From Candidatus Latescibacterota bacterium (lineage in GTDB: Bacteria; Latescibacterota; UBA2968), in NCBI GenBank assembly GCA_965242535.1, contig OZ251458.1, positions 4,294,525 through 4,358,524 of the forward strand: a stretch of DNA of 64,000 nt, in the 5' to 3' direction. Under the pieces are notes generated by a model, which had not been told where the DNA came from, searched no databases, and was given only the letters and a program-made list of their open reading frames with translations. The translations under genes and the position numbers were made by a program. The first letter of the stretch is position 1. Each line of letters starts with the position of its first letter. This document shows positions 14,056 through 25,907 of the stretch, one piece after another.

Positions 14056-14092
14056 TGGTCAATCCCGCCAGCACGCATGGCAACATTTGCCA
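14056..14092. promoter_or_regulatory. Two tandem TGG-N9-CCA boxes, putative PspF-type upstream activator sequences
   Basis: TGGTCAATCCCGCCA (14056-70) and TGGCAACATTTGCCA (14078-92); 22-bp periodicity; about 80-110 bp upstream of the sigma54 site. Confidence 0.6.
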
Positions 14093-14168
14093 AATGGATT
14101 TGCTCGTCTCATCGGCACAAAATATCTATATGGTTGAAAAACAAGGCGTAATGCAGAACGCGCAACTT

Positions 14169-14184
14169 TGGCACGCGCCTTGCG
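14169..14184 (+). promoter_or_regulatory. Sigma54 -24/-12 promoter of pspA
   Basis: TGGCACGCGCCTTGCG fits TGGCACG-N4-TTGC with exact GG/GC spacing. Confidence 0.85.
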
Positions 14185-14240
14185 TAAAAAGGGCGTCAGA
14201 TTAAACCCACATTCCCCAAGTCCCACGAAAGGAGCAAAGC

Positions 14241-14918
14241 ATGGCACGCGGAATTTTTTCGAGAATGGCCGACATCCTCAAGGCCAATGTCAACGACCTC
14301 ATCACCCGGGCCGAAGACCCGGAAAAGATGATCCGGCAGATGATCTTGGAAATGGAAGAAGCCGTCAACAAAGCCACGGCCTCGGTCGGCACGGCGGTCG
14401 CCAATGAAAAACGCTTGGAGAGACAACACATCGAAAAGCGAGATCAGATCGAAGCGTGGCAAAACAAGGCCGAATTGGCCGTTGAAGCCGGCGCAGACGA
14501 CCTCGCCCGTCGCGCCCTCGAGCGCAAAGCCGCGACGCAAGAAGCGGCCCGCGACCTCGAAGCGGCTTTGGCGGAAAGCCAAAAGACGTCTGCCCAACTC
14601 AAGCGACAACTCACCCAACTCAAAGCCAAACTCGACGAAGCGCGCACCCGCCAAGGCGCGCTGATTGCCCGCCGGCGCGCCGCCGAAGCCCGCAAGCAAA
14701 TCGCCCAGGGCCTCTCGGGCGTGGGCGACGACGCGTTTTCGAGCTTTGAGCGATTCCGCCAGCGCATCGAATCCGAAGAAGCCGAGGCCGAAGCGCATCA
14801 GGCCATGGCCGACTCCGACCCCTCGCTGGAAGAGGAATTTTCCCGCCTCGAGCGCAAAAATGCGGTTGAAGACGAGCTCAACGCGCTGAAACAGAAACTG
14901 GGGCAAAAAGATGCGTGA
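14241..14918 (+). CDS. pspA: Phage shock protein A (PspA/IM30)
   Basis: GIFSRMADILKANVN..AEDPEKMIRQMILEME; DLARRAL; coiled coil; AAAGGAG RBS. Confidence 0.95.
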   Translation: MARGIFSRMADILKANVNDLITRAEDPEKMIRQMILEMEEAVNKATASVGTAVANEKRLERQHIEKRDQIEAWQNKAELAVEAGADDLARRALERKAATQEAARDLEAALAESQKTSAQLKRQLTQLKAKLDEARTRQGALIARRRAAEARKQIAQGLSGVGDDAFSSFERFRQRIESEEAEAEAHQAMADSDPSLEEEFSRLERKNAVEDELNALKQKLGQKDA

Positions 14919-15561
14919 GCTGGAAAAACTCGCCGACGAAATCGCCCGCAAAATCGACCGTGCGGTCAGCCGGGCCGAACAAAAAGCCAAAACGAGATGG
15001 AAACGGCAATGGGAGGCACGCGCTCACAGCGCGACCCATCCGCTCAAGCGCGTGCCCGACCGCCTCTCCGATCTCGCCACGGATGGGAGTTGTGCTATGC
15101 GTTATCTCTTTGCTTATGGGTTTATCGGCATGGCCGCGATGCAGGGATTTAGCGGTCTCATGCTCGTGCTGTATTCATTGGCGGAACACCGACCTTGGGC
15201 AAATGGCACGACGTCTGCAATGCTCGAACCCGTCAGCATCGGCCTCGTGCTGATGGTCATGGCGCAGGTCACCTATTGGGCAGGCCGCCGAATCAAGCGA
15301 TCCGCAGACGAGAAAGCGCGCGCCAAAAATCAGAATCGCATCCTGCGTCTCGCCCGGGAAAAAGGGGGCAGTCTCACGGTGATAGAAGCGGCGACAGAGA
15401 GCAAAATCACGGTGGAAAAAACCGAGGAAATCCTGCGCGAATTGGTCTTGAGCGGTTACGCGGAAATGCGAATCTCCGAATCGGGGCTGGTCGTGTACCA
15501 CTTCTTGGAAATCGAACGCTGGAATGAAAAGCACTGGGCGCGGCCCGTGGATGAACTTTAA
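14911..15561 (+). CDS. Membrane protein with 2 TM and a C-terminal winged-helix-like domain
   Basis: Overlaps pspA; ILRLAREKGGSLT...ISESGLVVYHF C-terminal domain. Confidence 0.7.
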   Translation: MRELEKLADEIARKIDRAVSRAEQKAKTRWKRQWEARAHSATHPLKRVPDRLSDLATDGSCAMRYLFAYGFIGMAAMQGFSGLMLVLYSLAEHRPWANGTTSAMLEPVSIGLVLMVMAQVTYWAGRRIKRSADEKARAKNQNRILRLAREKGGSLTVIEAATESKITVEKTEEILRELVLSGYAEMRISESGLVVYHFLEIERWNEKHWARPVDEL

Positions 15562-15587
15562 TCGCCGGCAGGAGGGAGGGCAAAACC

Positions 15588-22669: not shown

Positions 22670-22676
22670 AACTCCC

Positions 22677-24089
22677 ATGACCGAAATCATCGTTGCTGAC
22701 GACCAGATCGAAGTCCTCGACATGCTGATCGAAAGCCTGCAAAGCGATACGCGCAGGGTGCGGGCATTTTCGACCGCCCGCGAGGCGTTGGCCTATCTCA
22801 AACAGCATCCGGACCGCATCGGCCTCGCGATCCTCGACCTCGACTTCGGGCCGGACGAACCCGATGGCCTCGAAATTTTGCCGCGCATGCTCGCCGCAGT
22901 GCCGGATTTGCCCATCATCATGCTGACCGGGCAAGGCACCATAGATACGGCGGTGGCCGCGCTGCGCTTGGGCGCGACGGACTTCATCGAAAAAGATTTT
23001 TACTTGGAAGACAAAATCGAACTCAGCGTCAAAAAACTCGACCGCGTGTACCGTGCGCTCCGGGAAAACGCCCAACTGCGCGCCGAGGTTCGGGACTTGG
23101 GTCGGGAAAACCAATTTTACCGAGACGAATTTGGCAAGCGGTATCGGATCATCGGCAACAGCGCGAAATTTCGCCGCATTCTCCAACAAGCCCAAACCGT
23201 CGCGCCCATCCCTCGGCCCGCGCTCATCGTGGGCGAACCCGGCACGGGCAAGGAACTCGTCGCCGCGGCCATCCACTACGGCGGTGCGCGCAAGGATCGG
23301 CCCTTTGTCAAGGTCAACTGCGCGGCTTTGGCGGATCAGTTGCTCCAAAGCGAACTCTTCGGGCACGAGAAAGGGGCTTTTACCGGCGCGACGAGCGCGC
23401 GTCCGGGCAAATTTGAAGCCGCGAGTGGGGGCACGATATTCCTCGACGAAATCGGCAATACCACCCCCGAATTTCAGCAAAATATCCTGCGCGCCATCGA
23501 ATACGGCGAAATTCAGCGCGTGGGCAGCGCGGTGCCCATCTCCTCGACCGACGTGCGCGTGATCGCCGCGACCAATGCCGATCTCGAAACCGAGATCGCC
23601 GAGGGCCGATTCCGCCGCGACCTCTACGACCGATTGCGCTTTGAGGTGTTGCGGCTTCCTCCGTTGCGCGAACGCCGCGAAGACATTCCCCCATTGGCCC
23701 ATTATTTTGTCGCGCAAATCGTCGAGGAAGTCCCCGGCCTTCCAAAGCGCGAATTTTCCGATTCGGCGATGGAACACCTGATGGCGTATCGCTGGCCGGG
23801 CAATGTGCGCGAACTCAAATTCGCGGTCGAGCGCGCCGCCTGTGTGGCGCGGGGAAGCGCGATTTCCCCCGGCGATCTGCCGCCCGAAGTGGCCCAACAC
23901 GCGCCCGCATCCGTCGGTCTGAGCAGTGGATTTGAAGCACAGGTGCGATCCTTTGAACTCGGCCTGTTGCGCCGCGTTCTCCACGACGTCTCCTGGAACC
24001 AAGGCAAAGCCGCGGACCAACTCAAACTCAGCTACGACCAATTCCGCCACCTGTACCGCAAGTACGGGCTAAAAAAAGAAAAACCTTAA
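22677..24089 (+). CDS. Sigma54-dependent response regulator: receiver + PspF-like AAA+ and HTH
   Basis: REC (ADD, LDLD, TG, K); [14 protein letters not shown]; PspF-like IEYGE, DRLRFEV and LSYDQFR signatures. Confidence 0.92.
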
Positions 24090-24107
24090 GCGGACTGACA
24101 ACGGACT

Positions 24108-24322
24108 GCGAGGACAGGCACGGGGCCGCTATCATTCGGACAGGCACAGGGGCCTGTCCCTACGGGGCGTTCTATCGTTCATTAGGCACCCCAAATGGCA
24201 TTGTAGGGACAACCCCCTGTGGTTGTCCAGTATTCGGACAGCACGGGGGCCTGTCCCTACGGTTGATGAGGGTAGGACTGGCAACCGACGACCGACAACG
24301 GACAACTGACCACCGACCACTC
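24108..24322. repeat. Cluster of REP palindromes and heptamers (BIME-like)
   Basis: Four GGACA(GG/AC)...TGTCCCTAC-type units plus CCGAC(A/C)A heptamers. Confidence 0.75.
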
Positions 24323-24324
24323 CC

Positions 24325-25907
24325 ATGGCTTTCGACATTCCCGTTCGGGCAAATCTCCGATTTTTTCGCTGTCTCAACGACAGCCTCTCCACTTGGGCGA
24401 GCCACCTTCCCCTTTTGTTTTTGGCGTCATCTTTGGCGACGATCCTGAGTATGGCGTCGGGCACCTTGCTCTTGGGCAGCCTGTACGCGGGCTTTGCCAT
24501 GATGATTTTGCGCGCCCAACGAGGCGAGCAACCCCACCTGCGCGATCTGTTTGGGCAGATCATTCGATTCGCGCGCTTTTTTCGATGAACATTTTCGTGC
24601 TGCTGTTCTTTATTCTCGGCATCCTCATCATCGCCGTGCCGGTGTTTTTGAGCAGCGATGCTTTCGCGGTCGCGTTCGATTCGTTCCGACGAGTTGTCGC
24701 CCGAGAAACGCCGTGGGTCATCGCCATTGGGCCGGAAGACATCGAAAACTTTTTAGGCGAAAAAAACATCGTCTTCTACGCCGCTATTTTGGCGTCTTGC
24801 CTGTTGTTTTTGCCCGGCCTCATCTTTGTCGTCAAGTGTTTCTACATCTATCTGCTGGCCGCAGACCGCGGCATGCGCGTTGACGAAGCCCATGTGGAAA
24901 GCCGCAAAGCCGTCGAACGCTATGGCTTTTTCCGCCATTTCGCCCTCGTCCTCGCCGCGCTTGGGATTCTCGTCGTCGCGATCGCGTTGATCGACCGCGT
25001 TGCCGACAATTCCCTCGTTCAGTTCGGCATTTTCCTCCTCTTGCAACCCCTCGCCCTCGGGATTTTTGCATCGGCGTACAACCAAACCCTTTGCGAAGAA
25101 GCCCGGCAGTGGGAGAATTACAAACGACAATTTTCAGAAATGCGCGACGAGTTGCAAACCGCGCACGACATGCAAATGAGCCTGTTGCCGCAATCCAGCC
25201 CAGAACTGCCCGGGTTTGAACTCGCCGGGACGTGCATCCCCGCCAACAGCGTGGGGGGAGATTATTACGCGTACCGCTATTTGGACGACGACCGGACAAA
25301 ACTCGGCATCGTGGTCGCCGATGTCTCTGGCAAAGCGATGGAAGCGGCGGTGACGGCTTTGCGTTTCAATGAGATGCTGCGCTACGAATGCCAAAATCGC
25401 ACCGCGCCAGGCGATATTCTCGATGGGTTGAACGCCGCCCTCGAAGGTCAAATTGACCCCGCCACCTTTATCACCTGTTGCATCGCCGTGCTCGACATAA
25501 CCACCGCCGAGGTCACCATCGCGAGCGCGGGACACTGCCCGCCGATTCACCTTTCCAACCGATCTCAATTTCTCGACCTCACGGGGTACCCTCTCGGCCT
25601 CCCGGCGGTTGTGCGGCCCGAAGCGCCCTATCGCACCATCCGTCTCACCCTGAACCCGGGGGATCGCTTGGTGCTCTATTCCGATGGCGTCGTGGAAGCG
25701 CAAAATGCCCAGCGCGACTTTTTTGACGACGATCGATTCGTCCGCCGCCTCGATCGCGCCCTCCCCTCCCAACCCCCCGCGGATTTGATCGCGGGCCTCG
25801 TCTCGGACGTCACCTCTTTTATCGGCGACGCGCGGCGCACAGACGATATCACCCTCGTCGTTCTCCAGCGCGATCCGTCCAAAAATCAGCAGTCGATCCT
25901 CGCCTAA
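24325..25907 (+). CDS. Membrane-bound PP2C/SpoIIE phosphatase, split by an apparent frameshift at about 24580 (ORFs 24325-24588 and 24585-25907)
   Basis: ELQTAHDMQMSLLP, VGGDYY, ADVSGK, SAGH, YSDGVVE, DDITLV; one extra T in the T6 run fuses the two TM-rich ORFs. Confidence 0.8.

Follow-up and report, generated by a model that had tools for sequence, protein, structure and literature searches.

The 64,000-nucleotide stretch of contig OZ251458.1 from Candidatus Latescibacterota bacterium (positions 4,294,525 to 4,358,524 of the forward strand; hereafter the window, to which coordinates refer unless stated otherwise) encodes a phage-shock protein (Psp) locus. In this locus pspA shares its strand with the genes of a histidine kinase with tetratricopeptide repeats (TPR) and of a PspF-like sigma-54 activator that carries a receiver (REC) domain. 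A psp locus with such an activator and a soluble TPR kinase adds a new variant to the known Psp systems. It is likely to constitute a membrane-stress module of the Psp type, in which the two-component system switches on pspA by way of sigma-54. The plus strand carries eleven co-oriented genes plus a membrane PP2C phosphatase, and all the genes named in an initial annotation of this DNA have been found in their places from the open reading frames (ORFs) and from matches to Pfam/NCBIfam profiles. The features that concern the conserved part of the locus are the following (TM, transmembrane; aa, amino acids; HTH, helix-turn-helix).

14056-14092, plus strand: predicted enhancer (upstream activating sequence) dyads TGGTCAATCCCGCCA at 14056-14070 and TGGCAACATTTGCCA at 14078-14092, 22 bp apart
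14169-14184, plus strand: sigma-54 (-24/-12) promoter TGGCACGCGCCTTGCG, 57 bp upstream of the ATG of pspA
14241-14918, plus strand: pspA, PspA/IM30 family, 225 aa (PF04012, 158.9 bits, residues 4-220)
14911-15561, plus strand: orf216, core protein with two TM helices and a winged helix, conserved in all locus groups
15588-15785, plus strand: orf65, small core protein with one TM helix and a coiled coil, recognised from conservation and a hydrophobic segment
21027-22274, plus strand: TPR histidine kinase, 415 aa (TPR_11, TPR_17, HATPase_c)
22677-24089, plus strand: regulator of REC-AAA+(sigma-54 activator)-HTH organisation, 470 aa (Pfam; TIGR02974 as top model)

The five-gene core and its promoter

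The product of pspA matches PF04012 over its full length, which places it in the PspA/IM30 family. It shares 40% identity with E. coli PspA over 221 aa and scores 182.8 bits against TIGR02977, under the cutoff of that model (242.95); it also lies under the LiaH equivalog cutoff.

The association of pspA with the kinase and the regulator has been followed in a linkage set of 74 loci, obtained by scanning one genome per species with an alignment of the kinase. The pspA gene is located upstream of the kinase gene on the same strand in 71 of the 74 loci, the three misses being contigs of 4.7-6.5 kb, and the regulator gene directly follows the kinase gene in 73 of the 74, the single miss being a cut contig. 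The linkage of the pair to pspA in related genomes, for which the initial annotation had proposed a check of gene neighbourhoods, is borne out by this survey. In every locus pspA is the first gene. Ten regions were fetched from eight genera, and all nine that are long enough show pspA and orf216, mostly orf65, then the gene of an extracytoplasmic function (ECF) sigma factor, the kinase and the regulator.

A group of 28 compact loci, with a kinase identity of just 44-48%, comprises only pspA, orf216, orf65, the kinase and the regulator. The flanking genes of the one compact locus examined (L109) are unrelated and encode an aldehyde dehydrogenase and a symporter to one side and NifU, SOD and AhpC to the other. 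Since these five genes alone persist in the 28 distant compact loci, the core module consists of pspA, orf216, orf65, the TPR kinase and the REC-AAA+-HTH regulator.

Orthologs of the regulator with at least 66% identity are encoded in 39 of 41 related genomes, the exceptions being the complete genome G026 and G013, an assembly of 430 contigs. Of the 168 species genomes of the phylum, 97 encode an ortholog of the kinase (E <= 1e-60), in each case as one copy. Three families account for 27/30, 21/22 and 48/76 genomes respectively, and at the same threshold no ortholog was found in the 39 genomes of the other eleven families (0/39).

The promoter TGGCACGCGCCTTGCG is the sole strict sigma-54 match in the 64-kb window, and 41 such matches occur in the 4.95-Mb genome, which contains one copy of rpoN. 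Among the loci with at least 330 bp of DNA upstream of pspA, a GGYAC-N5-TTGC element has been identified 60-110 bp before the start of the gene in 70 of 70 (50 strict and 20 loose), in agreement with the sigma-54 promoter that the initial annotation had placed before pspA. The two dyads of the window stand about 80-115 bp upstream of the promoter. Alignment of the upstream regions at the promoter brings out in every locus group a pair of dyads of the pattern TGGY-N7-RCCA, spaced by 21-22 bp and located some 80-125 bp upstream, with an A/T-rich stretch separating the dyads from the promoter. The start coordinate of the locus in the initial annotation, 14056, is the first position of the first dyad.

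The genome contains six matches to a loose pattern of the double dyad, of which two lie upstream of pspA genes. The second of these genes is a monocistronic pspA outside the window (G000:C1:4680616-4681296, minus strand; region to 4681470), preceded by TGGCACGAACATTGCG and by two dyads spaced as in the locus. The promoter and dyad design of this second pspA is kept in 20 of 20 loci of the genus or family, with a TTGT variant of the -12 element in four of four loci of family f2. The third PspA paralog of the genome is without such a promoter. Judging from this shared design, the regulator probably acts on the second pspA as well, and the presumed regulon would comprise the two pspA promoters.

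The receiver-bearing regulator, its kinase and a second lineage

The regulator scores 344.7 bits against TIGR02974 (PspF), a value under the cutoff of the model, and TIGR02974 is its top NCBIfam model. This is so for just this one of the eleven sigma-54 activators of the genome; the ten others score 224.7-307.7 bits, and the model ranks 12th-19th for them. The regulator aligns with E. coli PspF over 321 aa, the HTH included, at an identity of 45%. It comprises a Response_reg domain at residues 4-111 (62.2 bits), and unlike PspF of type Ic it therefore has an N-terminal regulatory domain. The receiver residues D8, D9, D54, T84 and K106 are nearly invariant in ten orthologs. The AAA+ domain (PF00158, 207.4 bits) contains the GAFTGA motif and the C-terminus aligns with the HTH of PspF; PF02954 is listed for some of the orthologs and not for the protein of the window.

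The AAA+ domains of 60 proteins (242 columns) have been compared in a careful maximum-likelihood run of IQ-TREE. The rows include the regulator of the window and six orthologs, all 13 activators of E. coli K-12, the 10 paralogs and 30 of 150 representatives, namely 11 single-domain proteins (300-360 aa), 14 of receiver length and 5 others. Multi-AAA+ proteins, which dominated the search for representatives, were excluded, and the search served solely as a source of tree rows. A clade of 29 rows with 100/100 support unites the regulator with E. coli PspF and leaves out the remaining 12 activators of E. coli and every one of the 10 paralogs. On this sequence tree the AAA+ domain groups with PspF and not with NtrC, ZraR or AtoC. 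Within the clade, the regulator and its orthologs form a group of 7 rows (99/94), and E. coli PspF forms one of 8 rows (100/100) together with seven proteins devoid of an N-terminal domain; receiver-bearing proteins of other origin are also included. The tree does not resolve the branching order within the clade, and the run is not fully settled (bootstrap correlation 0.982). The initial annotation had described the activator as derived from PspF; the relationship stands, and the direction is left open by the tree. With the branching inside the clade open, PspF could have arisen by loss of an ancestral receiver.

PspF is described in the abstracts of PMC3791423 and PMC6003685 as binding PspA through its W56 loop, or YLW patch. 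At this position all eight rows of the PspF clade have [YF]LSxRW. The seven regulator orthologs have HYGGARK or a similar sequence, with HYGGARK replacing HYLSSRW and W in none of them (0/7). The tryptophan is also missing in all 14 receiver-length rows, the 5 other rows, the 12 other E. coli activators and the 10 paralogs. A PspF-type AAA+ domain without the W56 loop means that the engine of PspF is kept and the known docking site for PspA is missing. From this replacement we infer that direct inhibition of the activator by PspA has been lost.

Another receiver-bearing member of the PspF clade, P0149, belongs to a protein cluster whose members are labelled Kofleriaceae in NCBI and 'psp operon transcriptional activator PspF' in JGI. 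Kofleriaceae is a family of Myxococcota. A scan of metagenome contigs with P0149 gave 80 loci (L168-L247). One of them, L170 (6160-12614), encodes on one strand and in this order a TPR kinase of 614 aa with no TM segment, a regulator of 473 aa, a PspA of 236 aa, a protein of 139 aa, an ECF sigma factor and a protein of 453 aa with a single TM segment. Wherever a contig reaches at least 1.3 kb upstream of the P0149-type regulator, a homolog of the kinase is encoded there (54 of 54 loci). Of the 56 loci that extend 800 bp or more downstream of the regulator, 49 have pspA there, at a median gap of 19 bp, and of the 34 that extend 2.2 kb or more, 31 have an ECF sigma gene. The gene order of this lineage differs from that of the Latescibacterota loci. 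Since the TPR kinase, the PspF-clade receiver-regulator and PspA recur in this second lineage, their association is not a peculiarity of Latescibacterota.

The kinase has no hydrophobic or TM segment (maximum Kyte-Doolittle value 1.12), as the initial annotation had it. Its HATPase_c domain scores 85.9 bits. Among ten orthologs no variation is seen in H184, which lies in the H-box YTHGHRIKNLMG within the motif GH[RQ]IKNLM, or in the ATP-binding motifs. The kinases of other genera carry about 110 extra N-terminal residues with further TPR repeats, and those of the genus of the window are without them. A repeat array in the window sits exactly where these residues would be coded.

Two membrane proteins complete the core. 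Orf65 has a single TM helix and a strongly conserved coiled coil with an invariant R..T..Q...I....K motif. Orf216 has been modelled with AlphaFold2 (pLDDT 74) as an N-terminal helix, two TM helices and a winged helix at 154-197, the last predicted to be cytoplasmic. Helices span 59-92 and 105-150 in the model, and the tail 209-216 is disordered yet conserved to the last residue. Weak matches to Pfam families of winged HTH domains were obtained for 8 of 12 members of the orf216 family. The best Foldseek matches are winged helices of the MarR/ArsR type with E >= 0.003, which support nothing beyond the term winged helix.

Identification of the two proteins with the membrane partners of E. coli PspA has been considered and rejected. 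Orf65 aligned with E. coli PspB in hhalign at a probability of 12.6%, which is not significant, the likeness being one of architecture only, and orf216 aligned with PspC at 0.4%; no Pfam match to PspB or PspC was found among the proteins of the locus. PspA belongs to the ESCRT-III superfamily, and the weak Foldseek matches of orf216 (model m69fc768b6244) include the ESCRT-II chains 2zme_A and 3cuq_A, which are poor fits with a root-mean-square deviation of about 16.

TPR domains are protein-binding modules, and free C-terminal tails that are conserved, like that of orf216, are typical of their ligands. PspA could still be the key negative regulator, one step higher than in E. coli: PspA or the tail of orf216 would hold the TPR domain of the kinase off, and recruitment of PspA to the damaged membrane would free the kinase. 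We regard this as rather unlikely, and it would refine the sensing step of the sigma-54 explanation given above and not stand as an exclusive alternative to it. It is favoured by the absence of the PspA-docking patch from the regulator, by the kinase having no TM segment and hence needing a protein input, by the general protein-binding property of TPR domains and by the position of pspA at the head of every locus. It is opposed by the genus of the window, which has lost about 110 N-terminal TPR residues and kept the system, and by the ordinary sequence of PspA, whose identity to the E. coli protein extends along the whole length. A co-fold of the TPR domain (residues 1-172) with the C-terminal domain of orf216 (128-216) gave scores of 0.00 and 0.00, which count neither for nor against a contact.

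Additions to the core and interspersed repeats

The remaining features of the locus are the following. A hydrophobic segment has been found in orf114 and orf52, as in each of orf216 and orf65.

15797-16141, plus strand: orf114, two TM segments and a coiled-coil tail resembling that of orf65; variably present (hydrophobicity, locus comparison)
16157-16315, plus strand: orf52, small protein with two TM segments; variably present (weak LiaF-TM match, E 0.035)
16406-17611, plus strand: DUF2807 (Toastrack-type) lipoprotein (PF10988, 171.6 bits; LMGC lipobox; internal 174-bp repeats)
17830-18408, plus strand: ECF sigma factor (ORF from 17695, likely start 17830; Sigma70_r2 and r4_2; TIGR02937, 98.3 bits, cutoff 42.9)
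18486-19067, plus strand: NfeD-like membrane protein, a weak assignment (likely start 18486; three hydrophobic segments; directly upstream of flotillin)
19082-20662, plus strand: flotillin, SPFH/Band 7 (PF01145, 97.8 bits; FloT model 144 bits, below cutoff)
20663-21026, no strand: interspersed repeat element and tandem array of CCGTCTT (x24), directly before the kinase gene
22275-22676, no strand: interspersed repeat of about 400 bp between the kinase and regulator genes (490 blastn matches in the genome, many near full length)
24585-25907, plus strand: membrane SpoIIE/PP2C phosphatase (ORF from 24393, likely start 24585; PF07228, 153.5 bits; 4-5 TM segments)

The initial annotation had seen in this locus the joining of Psp, flotillin/NfeD and ECF envelope-stress modules. 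The comparison of loci does not sustain this as a property of the system. The ECF sigma gene is confined to the taxonomic order of the window and is absent from the 28 compact loci. The NfeD-like and flotillin genes are absent from several genera and from all compact loci, and are lost together. These genes are accretions to the operon in the order of the window and do not belong to the core. The gene called NfeD in the initial annotation does encode a membrane protein directly upstream of flotillin, but its identity as NfeD is weak, the sole family signal being PF01957 at E 0.042 and 14.5 bits, below the cutoff of 29.1. The DUF2807 gene has been found only here and in one sister genome (L032/L066), and the Toastrack lipoprotein is a very recent insertion. 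The locus shows a stepwise addition of ECF, flotillin and Toastrack modules to a Psp core.

The PP2C gene, which had also been counted as part of the locus, does not follow the regulator gene in any compact locus or in most loci of family f2, and is mostly missing outside the genus. PP2C is a neighbour of the conserved module, and nothing ties it to the relay.

Tandem repeats occur within two of the added genes. The DUF2807 gene contains a 174-bp repeat (x2.7) at 17000-17467, and the flotillin gene an in-frame 66-bp repeat (x4) at 19722-19982 that codes for a repeated acidic/basic coiled-coil unit. On the other side of pspA, a divergent cell-wall amidase with three LysM domains and an Amidase_3 domain is encoded at 12323-13984 on the minus strand. 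This amidase is a conserved upstream neighbour of pspA across the order of the window and is not found in the compact loci of the third family.

The presence of the ECF sigma gene just upstream of the NfeD-like and flotillin genes here, and beside pspA in the second lineage, brings up another explanation, in which pspA and flotillin would answer to stress chiefly through the ECF sigma factor, as they do through sigma-W in Bacillus subtilis, and sigma-54 would be basal or secondary. Sigma-W of B. subtilis controls pspA, floA and floT according to passages of PMC8144471. We give this explanation little credence, as the 28 compact loci without the ECF gene keep the sigma-54 promoter. No anti-sigma gene and no ECF-type promoter was identified within the window, and scans of 13900-26500 for sigma-70 promoters and terminators gave counts at or below the means of shuffled sequence, which makes them uninformative.

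Four long gaps in the locus are filled with repeats: flotillin-kinase (20663-21026), kinase-regulator (22275-22676), regulator-PP2C (24090-24580) and PP2C-ThiI (25908-26379). The gap repeats have about 490-717 blastn matches each in the 4.95-Mb genome; the first 190 bp of the flotillin-kinase gap (20663-20852) has 635. The kinase and regulator genes are spaced by 4-30 bp in other genomes, as against the repeat of about 400 bp here. Since the long gaps are filled by genome-wide repeats, the spacing in this genome is atypical. One repeat type is about 400 bp long and often near full length at about 90% identity. The genome also holds 49 and 55 arrays of the 7-mer CCGTCTT, and is unusually rich in elements resembling miniature inverted-repeat transposable elements.

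A case of co-loss has been identified in the complete genome G026, which is without the kinase and the regulator and has kept pspA. At this locus (L248, G026:C1:1012000-1023000) the amidase-pspA pair is kept, and orf216, the ECF sigma factor, the kinase and the regulator are lost. Orf65 is reduced to a remnant of 18 residues, and the -24/-12 element is weakened.

A proposed circuit and its relation to known systems

Past the gene and promoter anatomy, we would order the events as follows. Contact with a partner protein would bring a membrane-derived signal to the TPR domain of the soluble kinase, and the locus itself names the candidate carriers, which are orf216, orf65 and PspA. The kinase would autophosphorylate on H184 and the phosphate would pass to D54 of the regulator. 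The phosphorylated regulator would assemble on the two dyads about 80-115 bp upstream of the -24/-12 promoter, where its PspF-like AAA+ domain would open the sigma-54 promoter complex. Transcription of the pspA operon and of the second, monocistronic pspA would thereby be raised.

Several observations weigh against this circuit. The Pfam HisKA model gave no match to the kinase, and the regulator falls below the TIGR02974 cutoff of 443.55. The extra rows of the AAA+ tree are best matches of the regulator and inflate the size of the 29-row clade, the placement of E. coli PspF being unaffected. Binding of the regulator to the dyads we infer from their position and conservation alone. In the second lineage no sigma-54 promoter was identified by strict or loose patterns near the kinase, the regulator or pspA, and the wiring there may differ. 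Repeat insertions set the kinase and the regulator apart from the operon in this genome. Lastly, G026 still has a sigma-54-like element, CGGCACAGATCCTGCA, upstream of pspA despite the loss of the kinase and the regulator, and this pspA promoter is either decaying or served by another activator.

The last two observations, together with the presence of ten other sigma-54 activators in the genome, are also what would be expected if the kinase and the regulator adjoined pspA but controlled other genes, the sigma-54 promoter of pspA being served by another activator. This seems quite improbable, since the adjacency persists down to a kinase identity of 44-48% and through the changed gene order of the second lineage, none of the ten other activators is PspF-like, and the compact five-gene unit has unrelated flanks. 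Control of pspA by the adjacent kinase and regulator is hence preferred.

A deeper reading, which we put forward tentatively and hold to be somewhat short of an even chance, is that these loci represent an old and separate Psp branch, spanning at least Latescibacterota and the Kofleriaceae-labelled lineage. The soluble TPR kinase of this branch would monitor the membrane by way of a protein partner (orf216, orf65 or PspA) and drive a receiver-bearing activator of the PspF type. The canonical PspF with its W56 docking site would then be a reduced derivative and not the ancestor.

To our knowledge, the only well-studied sigma-54 Psp example relies on direct PspA-PspF binding, and the sensing of membrane damage by Psp systems is still debated. 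The five-gene core is small enough to be rebuilt in E. coli, and makes the question of what a Psp system senses testable in a new setting.

The initial annotation had proposed a third architecture, distinct from the PspF and Lia systems, and no description of such a Psp architecture was found in the literature on Psp systems, Latescibacter and Myxococcus. That search covered the papers without their supplements, and Tables S3/S4 and the web application of PMC11237479 could list such a neighbourhood. Passages of that survey (Ravi et al. 2024) list PspF variants with ACT/PAS domains and two-component systems of the Lia type, and place PspF and two-component systems outside its detailed analysis. 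The main text of a second survey (PMC9239133; Popp et al. 2022) describes PspF only in Enterobacteriaceae, judges PspF beyond this family hard to assign and makes no mention of Latescibacteria. PspF is classed as a type Ic activator without a signal domain in a passage of Francke et al. 2011 (PMC3162934), and the Desulfovibrio PspF is presented as single-component in part of PMC4641369. Receiver-bearing PspF-like activators exist and are psp-linked, and the texts of the two large surveys (PMC11237479, PMC9239133), so far as these passages go, did not cover them.

The grouping of an ECF sigma factor, flotillin and PspA recalls the sigma-W regulon of B. subtilis, in which the three are functionally grouped (passages of PMC8144471). 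Here, in contrast, the genes are nested in a single operon headed by a sigma-54 promoter, and in part of the lineage only.

The NtrC family (NtrBC, ZraSR, AtoSC) shares with the regulator the order REC-AAA+-Fis-type HTH, the GAFTGA loop and a cognate kinase gene directly upstream. It differs in that the AAA+ domain of the regulator does not group with E. coli NtrC, ZraR, AtoC or GlrR, the input is a TPR domain and not a PAS or membrane sensor, and the target is pspA.

LiaR of the B. subtilis LiaIH-LiaGFSR system acts at a sigma-70-type promoter. In the Lia system a PspA-family effector is induced by the two-component system encoded beside it, and small membrane proteins and a Toastrack-type protein are encoded close by (as outlined in PMC11237479); the locus resembles it in this arrangement. 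LiaS is, however, a membrane kinase with a HAMP domain and LiaR consists of a receiver and a winged HTH (passages of PMC11237479), as against the soluble TPR kinase and the sigma-54 AAA+ activator found here. The Toastrack gene is a recent insertion in two genomes only, and the only LiaF-like signal is the weak LiaF-TM match of orf52 (E 0.035), so that the locus is not of the LiaRS type.

The closest likeness in design is to the PspF-PspABC system of E. coli: a PspA of proteobacterial type encoded first, a sigma-54 promoter with two upstream activator sites, and small membrane proteins after pspA. The AAA+ and HTH domains of the regulator align with E. coli PspF over the full length (45%) and fall with it in a common 100/100 clade, and the second pspA is a separate target promoter comparable to pspG (passages of PMC9239133). 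Unlike E. coli PspF, the Latescibacterota activator has an N-terminal receiver with all the phospho-acceptor residues, has no W56 loop and lies below the TIGR02974 cutoff. Its gene is located downstream of pspA on the same strand beside that of the kinase, whereas pspF of E. coli is divergent from pspA, and homology to PspB and PspC is not detectable here in hhalign (12.6% and 0.4%). The module keeps the PspF-type engine and promoter design, and would swap the feedback by PspA for a kinase-receiver step with a soluble TPR sensor.

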